Below, one piece after another: positions 4,849 through 27,869 of a stretch of DNA of 32,000 nt. Made by a program: the position numbers and the translations under genes. Origin of the DNA: Candidatus Heimdallarchaeota archaeon B3_Heim. Its GTDB lineage: Archaea > Asgardarchaeota > Heimdallarchaeia > Hodarchaeales > Hodarchaeaceae. The notes under the pieces were generated by a model. That model was given only the letters and a program-made list of their open reading frames with translations, had not been told where the DNA came from and searched no databases. Positions within the stretch are counted from its first letter, which is position 1, and every line of letters begins with the position of its first letter. The DNA lies in the NCBI GenBank assembly GCA_003144275.1, contig NJBF01000008.1:1-32000 (forward strand), in the 5' to 3' direction.

Positions 4849-6609
4849 ATGACGGTATCAAAGGCAATTTGGTTTACTCTATCTAAGGAACAACGAATAG
4901 AGGAAATTTCTCTTCGTAGAACCGACAATAAGACCTTCGAACAAATTGCTGACGAACTACTCGGTAATCCAAAAAAGAAATCGACAATTTGGAGTTGGGC
5001 TAAGCGTAATATGGATAATAGAGATTTATATCCGATGATAAAGAGATTACCCGTTGATCCTTACAGAAAATTCACTGAAACCGAACAATGGAAAATGCAT
5101 GATGAGATCGAACTTCTGTTTCCGCAATTAAGCGCGATTACTACGCACATCTTAGCAGAAATCACTAGAATGATTACAGAACATGAAAAAACACGTCTTA
5201 TTAACACAGAGAAATTTGCACAGACCGCTGGATTTTTAGATAACTTGGAACAACGAATAACTGCCTCTATTCAACGAAATCTTCAATCTTTTCGCATACA
5301 AGCTAGTCAAACAATGCCAAGTACTTCCTCTGTTTCACAACCCCCTATCCCTCCTCGTCCACTACCAAGAGGGTCGGTTCCTCCTCCACCACCACCTGGT
5401 ACTGGTGTACATATGCCTAGTTCTGTTACTCCAGGTAGTATGTCTTCTTTACGAACAGATTTTGAAATAATGAGTATGGAAGAAATAACAGCTCTCCCTC
5501 CTGACTTCTTGGAGGCTTTAATCCCTGTTGATAGGGGGAGAATTCAAAACCGTGTAAAAGAGCTGAAAATGATTGATAAGATGTCTCCTGAGGAGCGCGA
5601 GGAGTATCTAAAAAAGAAAGAAGAGGAAAAGGCTCGATCAGAAGCGGCAGAAGGTCTTGGCTCCTCACTTACTGCAATGCTAGATGATGATGATTCATTA
5701 TTTGCCCGGATGCGTCGCTCCGCGGATGATTCCCAAGTATCTGGTACTGGTACTTTTGGTAAGTTCACCACTGAGTACACCTATATTTATTGTATTGCGT
5801 GTGGTAAAACTAATCGCTCGGAAGAGGAATCGATTGAGCAATGTGGGTATTGTCAAGCAGGTCCTGATCATCTTGTCGCTGACGATGACAAATCAAATTT
5901 CTCTTATATTGAATGTTTGTCTCATAAATCCCATGAATATGTAGATCTCGACTATACTCGTGGTAAACAGATTGTCATTTTATCCCGTTGGAAAACTCCA
6001 ATTGGAGAGACAACTCATCCTCATGATTGTCCTTCAGATCAGATTAGGGACATTACGACTGCTATAATGTCGAAAGCTGATCCCGATAAACAATTTTCGC
6101 ATTTTTTGACAATATTTCGTTTGTATATACAGTTAAAACTACAGCCAGATTTGAAACCCCTTTTTGAGCAACTTTTTCTAACTATTCAGAAGCTACCTGA
6201 CAGTGTCTCGAAAGAAGCGGCTGTTTCTGACACGTACGAATTGATGGATCATTTCTTAGGTATTATTGCCTGGATTAGTGAGAGAAATGTAATTGAGGCA
6301 TTACCCAACTATGGTGATATTCAAGCTGCAATCGACAATCTTATACTTGATATTGATCCTCTAAAAGATTCTGAATCTCCCCAAGAATTACGTAAAGCTA
6401 GTGATATTGGTAGTGTAACCTCTAAAGCAGATCAATTATTGAATAAGTTTACAGCAATCATTCTCCGGATTGAATCAGAACTAGTAATACCCTCGCAATG
6501 GAAATGCACGAGCTGTAATAACGTATTTGAGGTTAAGGATCGCAATAAAACCCCTGAAAAATGTGAAGCCTGCGGGAAGATTATAACAAAACTCTTACCG
6601 GTTGATTAA
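4849..6609 (+). CDS. Hypothetical multidomain protein: N-terminal HTH, proline-rich tract, charged helical region, several Zn-binding motifs
   Basis: 586-aa ORF. HTH-like 'KTFEQIADELLG..KSTIWSW'; PPIPPRPLPRGSVPPPPPPG; CIAC-x14-CGYC; CLSH/HPHDC; C-terminal WKCTSC-x15-CEAC. Confidence 0.85.
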   Translation: MTVSKAIWFTLSKEQRIEEISLRRTDNKTFEQIADELLGNPKKKSTIWSWAKRNMDNRDLYPMIKRLPVDPYRKFTETEQWKMHDEIELLFPQLSAITTHILAEITRMITEHEKTRLINTEKFAQTAGFLDNLEQRITASIQRNLQSFRIQASQTMPSTSSVSQPPIPPRPLPRGSVPPPPPPGTGVHMPSSVTPGSMSSLRTDFEIMSMEEITALPPDFLEALIPVDRGRIQNRVKELKMIDKMSPEEREEYLKKKEEEKARSEAAEGLGSSLTAMLDDDDSLFARMRRSADDSQVSGTGTFGKFTTEYTYIYCIACGKTNRSEEESIEQCGYCQAGPDHLVADDDKSNFSYIECLSHKSHEYVDLDYTRGKQIVILSRWKTPIGETTHPHDCPSDQIRDITTAIMSKADPDKQFSHFLTIFRLYIQLKLQPDLKPLFEQLFLTIQKLPDSVSKEAAVSDTYELMDHFLGIIAWISERNVIEALPNYGDIQAAIDNLILDIDPLKDSESPQELRKASDIGSVTSKADQLLNKFTAIILRIESELVIPSQWKCTSCNNVFEVKDRNKTPEKCEACGKIITKLLPVD

Positions 6610-9550: not shown

Positions 9551-10288
9551 ATGAGGAAAGCATCTATTTTACTCATTGTAGGTATTATTTTATCAGCACC
9601 TATCCTAAGCGTTTCATCAACTATCTTCATAGAGCCGAAATTAGACTGGAAAGCTGCTGTGGGGGATTCCATGACCTTCCACTATACAAAATATTATGAT
9701 TCTTTCGATTCTGACGGAAATAGAGACCCGCATTCAACAATATTATCCATAATTAGTTCTAAGGGGGAAAATGTTAATATTTCAATAAAAAAGGGGTTGA
9801 AGGTCAGAGCTGTCATTACAGAGCTAGGGGACGCCCTTCCATCTATACAGTTATCATTTAATGGAATATCTACAGCCATGAGAAGATATACAGAATATTT
9901 CATATTTCACGGGTATGTTCTTGTTAAAACAGTCGATAATCAGACGTACTGGGATAGCAAGGCTATTCATACTGTAGAAAGCTCTCCATTTTCTAATCAC
10001 ACATTAGAAATTTCTGTAGAAGGTGAGAATTTTGTTACCAGGCATTTTAACGTTCATAATTCAGGGCAAATCTCTCAAAGTGTCCATAAGAGGAATTGGA
10101 AGACAGGTTGGTTTACTTATATCCATTCAAAGAATTCAAATGAAACTCATACTCTACAGGAAGTTGAATTCTCGGCTAACACGAAAGGATTATTCACTAA
10201 TTTGATTTCGGAGAGGATTTTTATTCTTTTAATGTTTCTCCTTACCTTTGTGACCATTATAATAATCACAAAACGAAGGACGGGCTGA
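9551..10288 (+). CDS. Secreted/cell-surface protein with signal peptide and C-terminal membrane anchor
   Basis: N-terminal MRK plus hydrophobic stretch; C-terminal TM helix followed by the basic tail KRRTG; beta-rich core. Confidence 0.75.
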   Translation: MRKASILLIVGIILSAPILSVSSTIFIEPKLDWKAAVGDSMTFHYTKYYDSFDSDGNRDPHSTILSIISSKGENVNISIKKGLKVRAVITELGDALPSIQLSFNGISTAMRRYTEYFIFHGYVLVKTVDNQTYWDSKAIHTVESSPFSNHTLEISVEGENFVTRHFNVHNSGQISQSVHKRNWKTGWFTYIHSKNSNETHTLQEVEFSANTKGLFTNLISERIFILLMFLLTFVTIIIITKRRTG

Positions 10289-10451: not shown

Positions 10452-10994
10452 ATGGTCATGTATAGCTGCAAGGTCATTTTATTAGGCCAAGGAGGTGTTG
10501 GAAAAACATCGGTTATTCGACGCTTCGTAGAGCAAGCTTTTAGCCATGACTATAAAACTACGGTTGGTAGTAACTTTTTATTGAAAAGACTACAATTAGA
10601 TGCCGAAACACGCATGACTATGCAAATTTGGGATCTATCAGGACAGGACTCCTTCCGAAATATTCGTACCCAATATTTTCTCCACTCTCACGGCGGTATC
10701 ATGGTATATGACTTAACTCGTCCTGAAACCCTTGCTAAACTTGATAAATGGCATTCAGATTTCACGGAAAAGGCTGGTGAAGTTCCTCTTATGCTATTTG
10801 GTAATAAAGTTGATTTAGAGGAGCAAAGAGCTATTAAATACGAAACTGGAACAGAAAAGGCCAAGAAATTCCATGCCACGTATTACGAAACATCTGCTCT
10901 TAATGGAAAAAATGTTCAGGAAGCATTTACTCGGCTGGCCACCAATATTATTGCCCATATTGATGCTAGACGAAGTAAGATAGGAAATAGATGA
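10452..10994 (+). CDS. Rab-like small GTPase (Ras superfamily; eukaryotic signature protein)
   Basis: G1 GQGGVGKTS, G2 YKTTVG, G3 WDLSGQD, G4 GNKVD, G5 ETSAL; no C-terminal Cys prenylation motif. Confidence 0.93.
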   Translation: MVMYSCKVILLGQGGVGKTSVIRRFVEQAFSHDYKTTVGSNFLLKRLQLDAETRMTMQIWDLSGQDSFRNIRTQYFLHSHGGIMVYDLTRPETLAKLDKWHSDFTEKAGEVPLMLFGNKVDLEEQRAIKYETGTEKAKKFHATYYETSALNGKNVQEAFTRLATNIIAHIDARRSKIGNR

Positions 10995-12268: not shown

Positions 12269-13066
12269 TTGGGAAGCATAATGACTGAACAAATACAAGA
12301 TCTCTCCTGGCGTATCATTCCTTATTCCCGAAATGATGCTTATCTCAACATGGCTGTTGATGAAGCAATTTACCAGTTATATGAAAAACTTAAAATTAAT
12401 ACTCTACGCTTGTACAGTTGGTACCCAAGTACAGTCTCTATAGGTCACCACCAATGCTTGGATGATGAGATTAATCTTTCCATGGTCAAAAAATACAATT
12501 TTCAAGCAGTTAGACGTATATCTGGTGGAGGAGCAGTTTTCCATGACTCTAAGGGGGAATTAACCTATTCTGTAGTGACTACAAAAAATCAGGTATCCAG
12601 TAAATCTATTGAAGCAAGTTATTATGAGATTGTAGACCTATTATTCTCTCCACTATCTAAACTTGGTATAACGATAGATTATAATCAAATTCATTGTCCA
12701 TCTGTTTTCAGTAAAGGAAAAAAACTCTCTGGAAATGCGCAAGCCCGATCAGGAAACGTAATACTCCAACATGGTACGATCCTCATCGATTATAACCCCG
12801 AACTCATGTATTCTGTTCTGAAAGCTCGACCAGGAAAAACAAAAAAACACATGGTCGAATCTGTCTATCAAAAGATTACTACAATATCAGAACAAATTAA
12901 GAAAACAATGACTCCACGCATGTTAGCAGAATTTATTTCTGAAGATTTATTGACAAACTTTCCTGCAACGTTTTTATTAGGGGAATTAACAACTGAAGAG
13001 CTAAAACTTTCTGAACAACTAGCAGAAACGAAGTATAACACCGAAGAATGGCTCCATCTCAAGTAG
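12269..13066 (+). CDS. lplA: Lipoate--protein ligase family protein (catalytic domain only)
   Basis: 'NMAVDEAI', 'VRRISGGGAVFHD', 'KKLSGNAQ', 'LQHGTIL'; the start may be the ATG of MTEQ; 8-bp convergent overlap with the next gene. Confidence 0.9.
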   Translation: MGSIMTEQIQDLSWRIIPYSRNDAYLNMAVDEAIYQLYEKLKINTLRLYSWYPSTVSIGHHQCLDDEINLSMVKKYNFQAVRRISGGGAVFHDSKGELTYSVVTTKNQVSSKSIEASYYEIVDLLFSPLSKLGITIDYNQIHCPSVFSKGKKLSGNAQARSGNVILQHGTILIDYNPELMYSVLKARPGKTKKHMVESVYQKITTISEQIKKTMTPRMLAEFISEDLLTNFPATFLLGELTTEELKLSEQLAETKYNTEEWLHLK

Positions 13067-14012
13067 AAAAAACTACATTCTCATTAAATTCCTGTTGAAG
13101 ATAATCTACAACAAAATTCTCAGGAAAGAGATACTTTCCATCTACAAGATATTTGGATAGTTGGTACTGGAAAGCATTTTCGAGATGGTTGACCACTGAT
13201 TTAGCGACCATTCGAGCAACTGAAAGAACCGAATTTTTATCTGTAATAATTGCACATAGAAGTGTGTCCCGTTTAACCATAACTATGGAATAATTTTCTG
13301 TCGATATAGAATTTAAGCCTTCACCACCCCCCATCATGCCACTTGCAAATTCATCAATCGCATTTAAAAATCCTGGTACAATATCATTACTCATAGACTC
13401 TTCAGGCTGATTCATGAATAAATGAGAAACTATAGGAACTCCTGTACGGAGAAAAAGATATATTCCTTCAAGTTTAATAAATTTCTTTGACATAGAAACT
13501 GCAATTTTTTGGGAAAACCAATTTAATGCACGATCGATATTCTTCCCAGTCTTTACAGAAATTTCAAATATTTGGAACGATCGTGTGGGGCTTTGATGAG
13601 GTAATTTCTGAAGATTGACCTTCTCTATTAATTTTGGTAGTTCTATGTGAGTTAAATCAGCTTTATTGGCCAAAATCATGAGAGGAGCTTCTGGATTCCA
13701 TTCTAAACATTTCCAAAGCCATTCCACCGCGTCGTTAAGTTTTTCAAGATCGCTGGAATCAATTATAAAGACGATTCCTTGTGAGAGTTTTACATACTCT
13801 TTCCAGAACATCTGTCGGAAACGTTCGTGTCCCCCTAAATCAAATAGCTGAAAAATTATACCTTGAATTTCCAAAATTTCTGTATCGAGTCCTGATGTCG
13901 GAAGCGTATTTCTAAATTCTCCAGTTTGAAGATGTAATACTAACGATGTTTTACCTGCGAACTCTAGCCCGACAATAACTATCGGAATACGCTTTCTTGG
14001 AAATTTCTGCAC
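13059..14012 (-). CDS. Arf/Sar1-like small GTPase fused to a C-terminal longin domain
   Basis: G1 VGLEFAGKTS, G2 LPTSG, G3 FDLGGHERFRQMFWKEY, G4 ANKADL, G5 EISVKTG. Residues ~178-290 (GIYLFLRTGVPIVSH...GFLNAIDEFA...LCAIIT) fit the longin pattern. GTG start. Confidence 0.88.
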   Translation of the reverse strand: MQKFPRKRIPIVIVGLEFAGKTSLVLHLQTGEFRNTLPTSGLDTEILEIQGIIFQLFDLGGHERFRQMFWKEYVKLSQGIVFIIDSSDLEKLNDAVEWLWKCLEWNPEAPLMILANKADLTHIELPKLIEKVNLQKLPHQSPTRSFQIFEISVKTGKNIDRALNWFSQKIAVSMSKKFIKLEGIYLFLRTGVPIVSHLFMNQPEESMSNDIVPGFLNAIDEFASGMMGGGEGLNSISTENYSIVMVKRDTLLCAIITDKNSVLSVARMVAKSVVNHLENAFQYQLSKYLVDGKYLFPENFVVDYLQQEFNENVVFST

Positions 14013-14193: not shown

Positions 14194-15582
14194 TTATTTA
14201 GAGAGAAATGAGTCGACAAGATTTCGTGCAAAAGCAATTAGCTCGGATTGGCGATCAAGATTTTCTTTAGGATCATACACTTCTATTTGCAGAGTATTGT
14301 TATCGCTAGCAAGATGGATGTGGATCCATTCAGTCTCTTCAGTAATGAGTTTAATACCAATAAAAGTGTCAATTACGCGAAAATCTTTCAAATGCTCATT
14401 TAAAACAGATTTGAAGAAGTTAAACATTTTTTCTAAGGGGAATGTTACTTCTGCTATTCTTTGAGCGAAAACTTGATGATTTCGATAAAGGTCTGTCGAT
14501 TTGAGATTTGATTTCGCCATTTGAGAGAGCACCGTGAAAGACGCAACTATAGCGTCAGATCCTGGAGAAAATACAGGCAATACAAATAATCCTGTATCAT
14601 TGAAGCCGTAGATGGCTCTGTGTTGTAGAACAGCCCGACCTATTCCTCCAGGTTCTCCATGGCCAGAAAAAATTAAATTTTTATGTAAATCGTGATATAC
14701 AGATGGGTGAACAGAGCTTCCAACAACCACGGTTGCATTAGAACTTGGATCATAACGTGAATGCAGGTTTACGGAAGCTGTTTCCTCAGCAGTTCTAATT
14801 CGGCCTTGACTGTCAATTATAATGGCATGTCGAGCTTCTGCATCCAAAGCAATTCCTAGATCTGCACCGATAGCACGAACAGTTTCTCTTAATCGGACTA
14901 AAGAGCTAGGATTTGGTAAAAAGAGCGGAGTACGAGGTCTATGAGCATTGAGGGTAATAACTTGACATCCAAACTCACTGAGTAAATCTGGCATAATTCT
15001 CGAGGCGGGACCACAGGCACAATCAACTACTACTCGTAAATTTGCCTCTTTCATGGATTCTTTACTAGAAGCAAAGAAACCTGCTAAGGCCCGATCATAA
15101 ACTTTCATTGCATCAGCTACGCTAATCCAACCTACATCGGGAGCCGCAACTCTTCTTAAGTCTCCTGATTTTGCAATTTCTACTATCTTCGCTACTTGTT
15201 TACTTTGGAATTCGATTCCTGTCGCCTCAAAAAGCTTTATGGACACCATTCCAGCAAGATTGTGACTTCGAGTGATCATGATCCCTGCATCAGCCCCATA
15301 TCGTCTAACCGCAAATTGTAAGATACTAGTAGGTATCCCATGAAGATCAATTAATTCAATTCCAGCTGAAAGAAGTCCCCCAGAAAATGACCGTTTTAGC
15401 ATACGAGTATCTCGTCTATAATCTCGACCGATCATCACTACTGCATTAGAATCTAAGTATGTACCCATTGCACCCCCTAGAAGTGCAGAAAGTTCTGGAG
15501 TCAATTCGGTATTTGAAAATGCAGTTATTCTCCCACCTTTAGCAAATGATTCATTATCCTTCAACATCTGTCTTATATCCAT
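14194..15582 (-). CDS. Alpha-D-phosphohexomutase (PMM/PGM) family protein, degenerate metal-binding loop
   Basis: 'GRDYR', phosphoserine loop TRSHN, 'VVVDCACGPAS'; the DxDxDR loop reads LDAEARH. Confidence 0.85.
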   Translation of the reverse strand: MDIRQMLKDNESFAKGGRITAFSNTELTPELSALLGGAMGTYLDSNAVVMIGRDYRRDTRMLKRSFSGGLLSAGIELIDLHGIPTSILQFAVRRYGADAGIMITRSHNLAGMVSIKLFEATGIEFQSKQVAKIVEIAKSGDLRRVAAPDVGWISVADAMKVYDRALAGFFASSKESMKEANLRVVVDCACGPASRIMPDLLSEFGCQVITLNAHRPRTPLFLPNPSSLVRLRETVRAIGADLGIALDAEARHAIIIDSQGRIRTAEETASVNLHSRYDPSSNATVVVGSSVHPSVYHDLHKNLIFSGHGEPGGIGRAVLQHRAIYGFNDTGLFVLPVFSPGSDAIVASFTVLSQMAKSNLKSTDLYRNHQVFAQRIAEVTFPLEKMFNFFKSVLNEHLKDFRVIDTFIGIKLITEETEWIHIHLASDNNTLQIEVYDPKENLDRQSELIAFARNLVDSFLSK

Positions 15583-16752: not shown

Positions 16753-16895
16753 CTACGGTGAAACTCCGGCAAAGTCGTCTACTAATTTCAGAATTTTGTT
16801 TCTAATCCTTGATTTCCATCCTTTGGACTTCCAAAAATTCTCAAGGGTTAAAAATTCTCTGTTAATATAGTACAGAAATTCTTTGAAAAATTCAA

Positions 16896-17102
16896 TCAAA
16901 TATTTCTTCTAAAGTAGATTCGCCAATGGTGCTGACACAATCGCTCTTCACATGTAGAACAATCATAATCAATTTCATCAGCACTTTCTTTTTTCTTATA
17001 ACAAGTATAGGAGTTACAAATGGCCGGTTTCCCACAGTACTGACATTCCTGTGAATCAACTTTAGGGTAGTGACTCTCTATTTTCGTTTTATTTTTTTGC
17101 AT
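16896..17102 (-). CDS. Small Cys/His-rich zinc-finger protein
   Basis: CQYCGKPAICNSYTC...CSTCEERLCQHH (7 Cys plus His in ~45 aa). The ATG at 17102 follows an AGGTGA SD-like motif; the track start is the GTG at 17117. Confidence 0.65.
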   Translation of the reverse strand: MQKNKTKIESHYPKVDSQECQYCGKPAICNSYTCYKKKESADEIDYDCSTCEERLCQHHWRIYFRRNI

Positions 17103-17383
17103 AATCAATATTATCACCTAGATTAAGGTTGTATAGAAATAAAGAGTGATGATTCATGGAAGTATGTCTAGCCTCCCCCAGAGATTCATTCGTCCTTTAT
17201 ACTCTTACAAGGAAGGCTTAAAATAAATCTTTTTAAGCGTTTTCCACAATTTTCGGAAAAATTGCATTTGTTTTTGCGAAATTTTCTTTAAAACTGTTCC
17301 TTTCTTTATGGACATTTATTCCTTTCTTAGGAATACTAAGAAACGAATATGAACCCATCTATTCACCTTTATTATGATTCAAG

Positions 17384-17620
17384 GTGAACCGTTTCCCCGC
17401 CAGGGCAGTCGGGCGGGATACTTACACCCATATAGGACATAAGTCTGTGAATATAGGTCATAGAAACACTGAGTTGATGTATACCTCTCCGAGAAGTCGT
17501 CTAAGTTCGGATAGTCCAATTGTTCGTGTGAGTTGATTTCTACCACGGCATGAGGGGGTAACCAGTGGTTGAATTTCAAGCGTGACTCCATCCTTTCATC
17601 CTCCTGACCCTTTATAAGCT
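17384..17620 (-). mobile_element. Candidate non-autonomous IS200/IS605-type element or structured ncRNA
   Basis: The minus strand ends ...TCCCGCCCGACTGCCCTGGCGGGGAAACGGTTCAC: a GC hairpin followed by GTTCAC, like IS200/IS605 right ends. The segment is more GC-rich than its flanks, has internal direct repeats and no recognisable protein. The left boundary is uncertain. Confidence 0.4.
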
Positions 17621-17791
17621 CCCTAGGAAATTTCGTTTACTTCCTCTTTTCTCGTGAGGTTAAGTGTTCCTATTTGTCTATATTTGGGTATAAATTTATC
17701 GATAGTTAATAACCCTATCATTTAAAAATATCAAAAACTCTAAAACATTATCCTTCGTGATTCCCCTAACTCAAAATTTTGAACCCTGCCT

Positions 17792-18547
17792 TTGTGGTTT
17801 TTCATGCAAGATGAGAATGTTCCGATAAATGATATTACAGAGAGGAAAAAGCCCTCTCTAGAATTAGATGAGAAAGATATCATTATCAATGATTTACGGG
17901 AAGAAATAAAGCGCATGAAAGATCAATCGAAGCTAAAACTCAATGAAGCTTTTGGTGATTCCACTAATCTCGAAAAACAACTTCAAGAAAGTCAAGATGT
18001 GCTCACTACGGTTAAAACTGCTCTTCAAACAGAAGTAGCAAAATCTGAAACACGAGCTGCTGAAAAACAAGAACTAGAGAAACAGATTCAGGAAATGACT
18101 GAAATTCATGCGCAAAAAGACTCGACAGCTGAATCTTATTTGCAGCAAATTGCGAAATTACAACAGCTACTGCAAGATACAGAAAGCGAGATTGAGGGCA
18201 TAGAAGCAGGTCATTTGGCAATTCAAAGGCAGCTAGAAGAAGAAATCAAACGAATGGAGGACCGATATGGCCAAGTAAGTGAAGATTTAAGCCGAGAATC
18301 ATCTAGTACGCACGCGCAAGATATTCTGATTCGGACTGTCCTCCAAGAATCTGAATTGGGAAAAATCACAATGTTCATTGTTGATTATTTCGAAAATTCT
18401 AAAAAGAAGTCACTAGCTAGAGAAACGATAGCCTTAGAATTACAACTTGCCCCGATTATTATTCGCTCCCACTTACGACTACTACATGGTTTGGGGGTTT
18501 GTTCTTTCAACGAAGTTTCCGGAGAAGTTAAATTAATTAGACAATAA
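17792..18547 (+). CDS. Coiled-coil protein with C-terminal winged helix-turn-helix
   Basis: Residues ~25-170 form a heptad-rich E/Q/K/L coiled coil; C-terminal 'SLARETIALELQLAPIIIRSHLRLLHGLGVCSFNEVSGEVKL' fits a wHTH; likely start is the ATG at 17804. Confidence 0.8.
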   Translation: MWFFMQDENVPINDITERKKPSLELDEKDIIINDLREEIKRMKDQSKLKLNEAFGDSTNLEKQLQESQDVLTTVKTALQTEVAKSETRAAEKQELEKQIQEMTEIHAQKDSTAESYLQQIAKLQQLLQDTESEIEGIEAGHLAIQRQLEEEIKRMEDRYGQVSEDLSRESSSTHAQDILIRTVLQESELGKITMFIVDYFENSKKKSLARETIALELQLAPIIIRSHLRLLHGLGVCSFNEVSGEVKLIRQ

Positions 18548-18576: not shown

Positions 18577-18921
18577 TTATTTTTTAATGGAGGAGTTGAG
18601 GCGAATTGAATAAACTCCATTATTTCCTGCAATAACAGGCGTTTTCTTTTTCTGAGGTTCACATTTAAGCAATTTATCAACATTAATATCATATATTCCA
18701 ATTTGCTTCTCTCTAATCGTCAGAAACTCCATATCTTCCGGCCGTCCAGCTTTTTCTGGAGTAAAGGATACAGGTTGAGTCGCTTTAGGCTGTAAACGTA
18801 AGCGAAATAAACGATGTCCACATTCACACCCTGTGAAAAGTTCGTTGGCTTTTTCTGGTGTTCGATCGCATTTTGCACAACGATAGCGTGTTAAATTGAC
18901 CTCTCCACTTGTTAAAGCCAT
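18577..18921 (-). CDS. oapC: OapC/ArvC family Zn-ribbon protein (DUF2072)
   Basis: YRCAKCDR...FTGCECGHRLF Zn ribbon and C-terminal 'GIYDINVDKLL...GVYSIRL'; third gene of the oap operon. Confidence 0.85.
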   Translation of the reverse strand: MALTSGEVNLTRYRCAKCDRTPEKANELFTGCECGHRLFRLRLQPKATQPVSFTPEKAGRPEDMEFLTIREKQIGIYDINVDKLLKCEPQKKKTPVIAGNNGVYSIRLNSSIKK

Positions 18922-18936
18922 ATTTTCACCGTCAAA

Positions 18937-19254
18937 TCAGACAAGAGCAATTGAAAGATGTTCATAGTTATGGGGTGCAATTACCGTCATCTTGAGATTT
19001 CTCCTATTGAACAGTCCGCTCATTCTGAGGGGGGTTGGATTGAGAATTTTATATCCCAAGAACTTTTGGTGATCTATTTGAGTCATAGTTTCCTGTATCA
19101 ATGCAGCTTCTTCTTCAGGATTAAGACCGCCTTCAAAAACCAAAACACAATCTGTTTTCAGTTTTGAAATTATATAATCACATTTTTGGGTGCTGTTCAT
19201 TTTTCGTGTGGTATGTTCGGTTACAAAATTGATACGTAAGTCCACTTTTTGCAC
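18937..19254 (-). CDS. oapB: OapB/ArvB family protein (DUF2073)
   Basis: 'VLVFEGGLNPEEEAALIQETMTQID...F.G' and 'MTVIAP' motifs; lies between oapA and oapC; GTG start. Confidence 0.88.
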   Translation of the reverse strand: MQKVDLRINFVTEHTTRKMNSTQKCDYIISKLKTDCVLVFEGGLNPEEEAALIQETMTQIDHQKFLGYKILNPTPLRMSGLFNRRNLKMTVIAPHNYEHLSIALV

Positions 19255-19257
19255 CTC

Positions 19258-19872
19258 TCACATTCCTGACACAGATAGGATACTTCCATACAATTCATTC
19301 ATTCCAGATCCATCTTTTGCTGAAATTGGAATAATGTCACTTTGGAATGTTTCTTTTACAAGTTCTGGATCAGCCTCGGCCAAATCGGATTTATTGGCCG
19401 CTACAATGATTGGGATTTTTCTTGCTTCAAGATTTCCTATCACAGTCCAATTTATTTGGTCAAATGGTGCACGAGCAGCGTCAACTACTACTATTGCAGC
19501 ATCCATTTTATCTAAGCTTTGAATAGCTTTTATTACACCTCGGGTCGCTTCTTTTGCTCGTTGAATACTATCCTGTCGTGATAAACCATGTTGTTGGAAT
19601 TCACGATAATCAATTGATGTGGTAATACCTGGAGTGTCAACAATGGTTAAATCTAAGGATCCATTATGGTCACTAATAACACAGTGTTCCAGAGCTTTGC
19701 AATCACGAGTTTCATGAGGGACTGGGCTCACCACACCTAATGGTTCACCGTTTCCACATTCATTGGAAATACGATTTGCGAGAGTTGTTTTTCCTGCGTT
19801 AGGAGCTCCCAGGATTCCTATAGTAACTTGGGTTTTTCGGCTACGTGCAAATAATCGCGATAAGATACTCAT
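19258..19872 (-). CDS. oapA: OapA/ArvA Era-like small GTPase
   Basis: G1 GAPNAGKTTLANRI, family motif PHETR, G3 VDTPGITTSIDYREF, 'AKEATRGVIKAI', G4 ANKSDL, G5 ISAKDG. Confidence 0.92.
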   Translation of the reverse strand: MSILSRLFARSRKTQVTIGILGAPNAGKTTLANRISNECGNGEPLGVVSPVPHETRDCKALEHCVISDHNGSLDLTIVDTPGITTSIDYREFQQHGLSRQDSIQRAKEATRGVIKAIQSLDKMDAAIVVVDAARAPFDQINWTVIGNLEARKIPIIVAANKSDLAEADPELVKETFQSDIIPISAKDGSGMNELYGSILSVSGM

Positions 19873-27212: not shown

Positions 27213-27869
27213 TTATTCTTCTTCATCTCCACGAATATCAGATACCTCTTTTATTCTCTCCTCAGAAGGCTGGAAAAGCTCCTCCTGAAGAATCTCAGTT
27301 CTTTGAGCTAGATAATTAAGTTCATCAGATGATAATTCTGGTGATTGATCATCAGATTCACTTAACGTCTCAAATGAAGGCAGAGTAGATGATGCAGAAC
27401 GGACATCTTGTTGATCATCAATAGTCTTATCTTCTTCACCAAGGGTGAGGTATTTTACTTCTTGATAGGAAAGCTGGTGTGATGTATCCTGAACAATTGG
27501 TTTTGGGGGATGTTCCTCTGAGGAAGATTCCTCCCTGATTATGCCAGTAACAGACTCATAAGTCTCCTGATCCACATATTCTATTGATGTTTCATGAGTG
27601 ACCTTATCGTCCATATGTTCACTTTCTAATTCGATGTGAATGAACAACTTCCCATAATTCTGTAGAGGAATAACTGGTACGTGTAATTCCAGAAAATCAC
27701 GCTTGGAAGCCCCAGTATAAAATCCACGTAGGTGATCTGATTCATCCAAGATCTTTACACGATATTTAGTTACTCCATCATTTAATTTGCATCGAATATA
27801 GAAAGGAATGCAAATATTCATAACAGAAAATTCATCCCCCACATCGTCCACGATTTCTATTTTCCTCAT
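27213..27869 (-). CDS. Hypothetical cytoplasmic protein: beta-rich N-terminal domain plus acidic low-complexity tail
   Basis: 218-aa ORF with alternating-hydrophobic beta strands over ~100 aa, then an E/D/S-rich tail ending DEEE. Confidence 0.75.
   Translation of the reverse strand: MRKIEIVDDVGDEFSVMNICIPFYIRCKLNDGVTKYRVKILDESDHLRGFYTGASKRDFLELHVPVIPLQNYGKLFIHIELESEHMDDKVTHETSIEYVDQETYESVTGIIREESSSEEHPPKPIVQDTSHQLSYQEVKYLTLGEEDKTIDDQQDVRSASSTLPSFETLSESDDQSPELSSDELNYLAQRTEILQEELFQPSEERIKEVSDIRGDEEE

Follow-up and report, generated by a model that had tools for sequence, protein, structure and literature searches.

Fusions of small GTPases with longin or roadblock domains have been described from Asgard archaea. 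Specifically, Arf-like GTPases fused to longins are reported from Lokiarchaeum (cited in PMC4917890), and two later studies list 26 GTPases of MK-D1 that are combined with roadblock or longin domains (Tran et al., 2024; PMC10933270) and describe the AArf GTPases, some of which bear extra domains such as longins, N-terminal longins being mentioned, and many of which likely do not act on membranes (Zhu et al., 2025; PMC11914678). Two Asgard ArfRs, HodArfR1 and GerdArfR1, have been described individually (Vargova et al., bioRxiv 10.1101/2024.02.28.582541) and need their own helix for membrane binding; according to the same study, eukaryotic paralogues are not traceable to particular ArfRs and the deep branches are unsettled. 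For the most part, longin domains (defined in PMC3747258) and roadblock domains serve as dimeric platforms and not as catalysts; the Rags dimerise through their C-terminal domain, which lies at a distance from the GTP pocket (PMC3747258). GAP longins, characterized by a GP motif and an arginine finger, are also known and include Asgard examples (PMC12290439).

The gene considered here lies within a window of 32,000 nucleotides, the whole stretch of DNA that was analysed, and begins with a GTG codon (Table 1). Its product is a conserved ArfR (AArf)-longin fusion belonging to a subfamily of the Heimdallarchaeia, and its build is a published one: the remark of a sequence-only reading that GTPase-longin fusions were already known in Asgard archaea agrees with Tran et al. 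(PMC10933270) and Zhu et al. (PMC11914678). That reading had also described an Arf-family G-domain with histidine in place of the Arf/Ras glutamine, no N-terminal amphipathic helix and a longin-like C-terminus, and this set of observations is confirmed. The Pfam matches of the 317-residue protein are led by Arf (120 bits, residues 6-170), followed by SRPRB (52 bits) and Gtr1_RagA (22.5 bits).

Table 1. Position in the window of the ArfR-longin gene, its domains and its nucleotide-binding motifs.
Feature	Position	Strand	Basis
ArfR-type GTPase gene with C-terminal longin domain, 317 aa	13059..14012	-	ORF, Pfam, AF2
Arf-type G-domain, residues 7-171	13500..13994	-	Pfam Arf 120 bits; VIA structure comparison
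G1 P-loop, residues 15-22; Arf-type Leu/acidic at positions 2-3	13947..13970	-	homologue alignment
G2 Thr39; invariant in 58 homologues	13896..13898	-	alignment
G3 motif Asp58-His62; His62 codon CAC at 13827-13829, site of the Arf/Ras catalytic Gln	13827..13841	-	58 homologues, codons
G4 NKxD, residues 116-119	13656..13667	-	alignment
G5, residues 150-153; Ser152 invariant, residue 153 variable	13554..13565	-	alignment
Longin domain, residues 179-315; about 4 residues from helix alpha5	13068..13478	-	AF2 models, Foldseek, VIA

All five nucleotide-binding motifs, G1 to G5, are intact and are invariant or nearly so in the homologue alignment; Thr39, Arg66 and the switch II Trp70 are invariant, and the interswitch has the length seen in Arf. 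Judged by the G1 and G3 criteria given in PMC11914678, the protein carries an Arf-type G1 (Leu, acidic) and a G3 of the form DxGG, the third residue of G1 being Glu in place of Asp. The closest solved structures of the G-domain are Arf proteins, with VIA Z scores of 26.9 to Arf1, 26.8 to GerdArfR1, 26.6 to HodArfR1 and 24.4 to Sar1, such that Arf1 and both Asgard ArfRs rank above Sar1. The G5 motif stands as it had been quoted from the sequence, while the valine that had been matched with Sar1 is shared by just 7 of the 47 close relatives compared (Met in 23 of 47) and is thus not a family signature. The spacing to the switch II Trp is 7 in all 21 family members compared and in HodArfR1, versus 6 in 17 of 17 Sar1 and 47 of 47 eukaryotic Arf/Arl sequences. 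At the N-terminus, strand beta1 is preceded by six residues, as it is in 31 of 47 family members, none of the nine in-frame codons between the preceding stop and the GTG offers an alternative start, and the AF2 model has no N-terminal helix; together these data argue that the amphipathic helix is absent.

The assignment of the C-terminal domain was reached by structure, which overruled two sequence-based results: Pfam gave no match above cut-off for this domain, with a weak MAPKK1_Int match only, and a profile search against PDB sequences returned a roadblock as the best match. Folded alone by AF2 (pLDDT 83), the domain displays the longin order of elements, a strand coming first, and it aligns over its whole length with TRAPP Trs23 (VIA Z 12.8, rmsd 2.8, 128 residues) as well as with Mon1, Ccz1, Sec22 and AP-sigma, Foldseek being in agreement. 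Its likeness to SRX (Z 9.8-10.3) does not exceed that to other longins. Roadblocks align only up to about residue 113 of 143, and the leading helix before beta1 is missing; a roadblock identity was rejected on these grounds, and the longin proposed from the sequence holds. An identity as a GAP longin of the FLCN/NPRL2/SMCR8 type was likewise rejected, the adjacent GP motif before beta2 being absent and a G191-x-P193 arrangement occupying the beta1-beta2 loop in 45 of 47 relatives. Within the longin, Arg267 is invariant (47 of 47) and Lys247-Arg248 nearly so (13209-13214 and 13269-13274 of the window, minus strand); these are candidate contact residues, and they might have a role beyond that of scaffold.

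Those homologues of the protein that bear a taxon name indicate Hodarchaeales. Orthologues of the gene, at 52-95% identity, are found across the genus of this genome, and in loci L001-L013 the genes for phosphomannomutase, the GTPase, lipoate ligase and KaiC follow one another in this order. No partner gene was found beside the GTPase gene, the conserved neighbours being metabolic genes and KaiC. The phosphomannomutase-like neighbour (14194-15582, minus strand) is highly conserved, and by eye its metal-binding loop looks degenerate, with one Asp replaced by Glu and the last by Arg. A second paralogue, with different neighbours, is present in several genomes; in one of them (G019, L014:1-1228) it adjoins what by eye are cheC/cheD-like genes. 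Elsewhere in the window, a single-domain small GTPase of RasL/Rab type with Gln (10452-10994, plus strand; Pfam Ras 166 bits) lies 2 kb away and served as an outgroup, oapA (a GTPase), oapB and oapC stand in a row (18577-19872, minus strand), a stretch of about 1 kb is free of ORFs (16753-17791) and is followed by a coiled-coil-like ORF (17792-18547), and ORFs of 586, 245 and 218 residues (4849-6609, 9551-10288 and 27213-27869) gave no Pfam match above cut-off, the first having a weak zinc-ribbon match at its end. In haloarchaea the oap genes adjoin a replication origin.

The same genome contains 51 Pfam Arf matches. Six of these are ArfRs: three have a long C-terminal tail, the present gene and two further longin-fused ones (C96:102494-103426 and C27:23437-24468), one is the orthologue of HodArfR1 (identified via L069), and the five other than the present gene carry Gln at the catalytic position. 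More distant fused ArfRs are common in other families of the Heimdallarchaeia and were found as well in Korarchaeia and in two families that do not belong to that class, and the tails of 7 of 14 fused groups are homologous to the longin described here (profile probability 80-97%, shuffles under 1%). Fused genes may be adjacent to one another: in other Heimdallarchaeia, one locus holds a tandem pair of ArfRs with C-terminal tails, the former with Gln and the latter with His (L036:533-2387), another a cluster of four such genes (L024:265-6498), and adjacent pairs resembling the tandem are present in G148, G154, G164 and G173. Seven ArfRs labelled as Korarchaeia or Thermoproteota (L249, L254, L265, L266, L271, L281 and L301) have a longin-homologous tail (hhalign 94%) and outscore all other archaeal ArfRs against the HMMs of Sar1 and Arf, yet carry Gln. 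A search of the ESM Atlas matched only the Asgard cluster to which the protein itself belongs and clusters like it. Arf-like GTPases were also seen on 45 IMG/VR contigs (L081-L125), many labelled as giant-virus MAGs, one of which (L104) encodes a Sar1-like protein.

For phylogenetic placement, eukaryotic Arf/Arl and Sar1 sequences were gathered from metagenome contigs and protein searches, and 126 usable SRbeta sequences as well as Asgard Rag, RasL, ArfL and MglA were added. Short Sar1 and SRbeta fragments were used as search seeds only, all sequences in the trees being retrieved ones, and the labels Arf1 and Arl1/2/3/5/8 given to metagenomic sequences are our own assignment from switch II motifs and do not come from annotation. 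The trees comprise 69-86 sequences over about 165 columns of the G-domain, with Arl6, Arl13, Arl16, Arfrp1 and the eukaryotic Rags lying outside their sampling. Under LG+C20, with the histidine column removed, the protein is placed among longin-fused ArfRs in a clade of 24 members, all of them from Asgard archaea (97/85); two branches, with supports of 95/89 and 96/90, stand between this clade and the Sar1, SRbeta and Arf/Arl sequences. In a tree without outgroups, the eukaryotic sequences all lie on one side (65/82) and the present family is among those furthest from them. When ArfL and MglA are included, ArfL (100/99), Rag (100/97) and RasL (100/99) each form a clade that excludes the protein, Sar1 nests with Arf/Arl1/2/3/5 (96/95) and the backbone is a polytomy. 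The affinities of the protein are with the Arf-related paralogues of Asgard archaea, and it belongs to none of ArfL, Rag, RasL and MglA; identity as a Rag or an ArfL was rejected. An SRbeta+Rag grouping in a first quick tree, likely the result of long-branch attraction, was gone once more SRbeta sequences were included.

The catalytic position itself varies in a restricted manner. Among 58 homologues, residue 62 is His in 49 and Gln in 9 and is never anything else, while residue 63 varies freely, which suggests that the site stays catalytic. The codons concerned (CAY and CAR) are one base apart, and a syntenic orthologue of 77% identity (L005) has Gln62, encoded by CAG where the present gene has CAC. 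At larger scale, 117 Asgard ArfR G-domains include 38 with His and 76 with Gln at this position, and a tree of 44 Asgard ArfR sequences, built without the histidine column, requires 12 His/Gln changes. Three fused ArfRs (L054, L064 and L065) have Lys or Ser there and are possible pseudo-GTPases. Histidine occurs also in RasL proteins of the same genome (C53:43709-44242 and C79:11097-11606, both single-domain), in a published Helarchaeales RasL and in ArfL proteins. Judged from these comparisons, His62 is probably an alternative to Gln that recurs and is tolerated functionally, and its likeness to the histidine of Sar1 would be convergent. In the available parts of PMC4917890, Tran et al. (PMC10933270) and Zhu et al. 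(PMC11914678), no mention of such toggling was found.

We propose that the protein is an ArfR-longin switch with a Rag-like tail and a convergent histidine, a reading that, taken whole, we consider fairly probable. The protein is predicted to bind and slowly hydrolyse GTP, with His62 positioning the water, the task of Gln in Arf and of His in Sar1. Having no amphipathic helix, it would not insert into membranes on its own; given that HodArfR1 and GerdArfR1 bind membranes through theirs, it should be soluble unless recruited by a partner. The longin, which follows directly upon alpha5, would provide a platform on which another longin protein dimerises or docks, as in Rag, the putative partner being a paralogue or a stand-alone longin, and nucleotide exchange and GAP activity would be supplied in trans. 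Since the tail is attached at the same point as in Rag, a platform is by analogy more likely than a GEF or GAP acting in cis, and the Rag precedent likewise weighs against the self-contained GTPase-regulator module that the sequence-only reading had proposed. Prediction of a homodimer with GTP gave a score of 0.22 against a mark of 0.42, which we count neither for nor against dimerisation. The tandem and clustered paralogues of relatives (L036, L024) fit with candidate heterodimers. Were the protein such a soluble GTPase with a longin of its own, it would offer a handle on what prokaryotic longins do for GTPases.

The rival to this platform is a longin that serves as a built-in GAP, GEF or nucleotide lock, touching the switches in cis or across a dimer, and in whose presence His is favoured. 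Support for such a role can be found in the distribution of the residue, His being present in 38 of 93 ArfRs that have a C-terminal domain and in 0 of 24 that do not (two of the 24 being cut by contig ends), and in the finding that each of the 12 changes maps to a branch of fused ArfRs, for which the crude chance is about 0.03 by branch length; the conserved Arg267 and Arg248 of the longin, and the existence of arginine-finger longin GAPs in Asgard archaea (PMC12290439), are in keeping with it. The restriction of His to tailed ArfRs in this sample, together with the invariance of Arg267, means that the tail may tune catalysis. Nonetheless, we judge a built-in regulator unlikely: an independent-pairs test of His against fusion is not significant, with only 2-3 pairs, His is found also in single-domain RasL and in ArfL, the beta1-beta2 loop has G-x-P where GAP longins have the adjacent GP, and the linker is only about four residues long. 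In the Arf fold, moreover, alpha5 terminates on the side remote from the nucleotide, which we also count against it.

Two further explanations concern descent, the sequence-only reading having suggested that the protein may lie near the root of Sar1, SRbeta and Rag and having called its histidine Sar1-type. That the family stands at the root of Sar1, with His inherited in common, draws on the shared five-residue G3 motif and on 34% identity to vertebrate SAR1A, and is extremely improbable. The identical motif is present in a RasL-type protein of the same genome, the G5 valine is not conserved, switch II exceeds that of all 17 Sar1 sequences by one residue, and the amphipathic helix of Sar1 is missing. 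An AU test rejects a grouping of the family with Sar1 (p=0.005; placement rank 78 of 116), Sar1 nesting instead among eukaryotic Arf/Arl, and against a Sar1 HMM the score of the protein, histidine masked, is below average, at place 51 among 116 Asgard ArfRs. The Sar1 reading is thus refuted as far as the data go; a sporadic histidine in a clade unrelated to Sar1 is largely what the toggling, the Gln of L005 and the trees revealed. A better case, though still an improbable one, can be made for an archaeal sister of SRbeta, the single-chain forerunner of a pair, SRbeta and the longin SRX, that was split later. SRbeta has His at the same site and binds a longin, the family scores 64 bits on a His-masked SRbeta HMM compared with 53-58 for other ArfR groups (the present protein ranking 15 of 116), a family+SRbeta grouping is not rejected by AU tests under the mixture model (p=0.080 and 0.152), and Hodarchaeales ArfRs branch unstably with SRbeta in Vargova et al. 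However, no best tree joins the two, the placement ranks 68 of 116, 21 log units worse (p=0.017 on a fixed backbone), and 49 of 116 SRbeta placements are not rejected, such that the long branch of SRbeta fits many places. G3 is DxPG in SRbeta and DxGG in the family, the C-domain resembles SRX no better than it does other longins, and a transmembrane anchor is lacking. If true, a link to SRbeta would be relevant to how ER targeting arose. As to Rag, its clade excludes the protein. For Asgard GTPases, the present example shows that a catalytic histidine does not mark Sar1 ancestry, and the natural His/Gln pair formed by the present gene and its syntenic orthologue could be used to measure the effect of the swap.

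Comparison with known systems places the ArfR-longin protein among several partial likenesses. With the Asgard GTPase-longin and GTPase-roadblock fusions (PMC10933270; PMC4917890) it shares the joining of a G-domain to a longin without an operon partner; in the Lokiarchaeum ArfL fusions sampled the longin is N-terminal and the clade a separate one, whereas here it is C-terminal. With HodArfR1 and GerdArfR1 (8OUK/8OUL and 8OUM/8OUN) it has in common the Arf-type G1 and G3, the normal interswitch and the invariant switch II Trp, and with HodArfR1 the length of switch II; with the Asgard ArfR/AArf proteins at large it shares close structural likeness and a distribution in Heimdallarchaeia, but it is without their N-terminal amphipathic helix, has a C-terminal longin, and its family mostly has His in place of Gln. 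Sar1 has the same His within an identical five-residue G3 motif, yet differs in its helix, its shorter switch II, the absence of the extra longin and the rejected sister grouping. SRbeta, paired with the SRX of SRalpha, likewise combines a His at G3 with a longin, and differs in that the present protein has DxGG, no N-terminal membrane anchor and its longin in cis after alpha5. Finally, Rag/Gtr proteins display the same succession of a G-domain and, directly after it, a domain of the longin/roadblock class, with neither lipid anchor nor helix; here, the tail is a longin rather than a roadblock, and the G-domain is of Arf type and lies outside the Rag clade.
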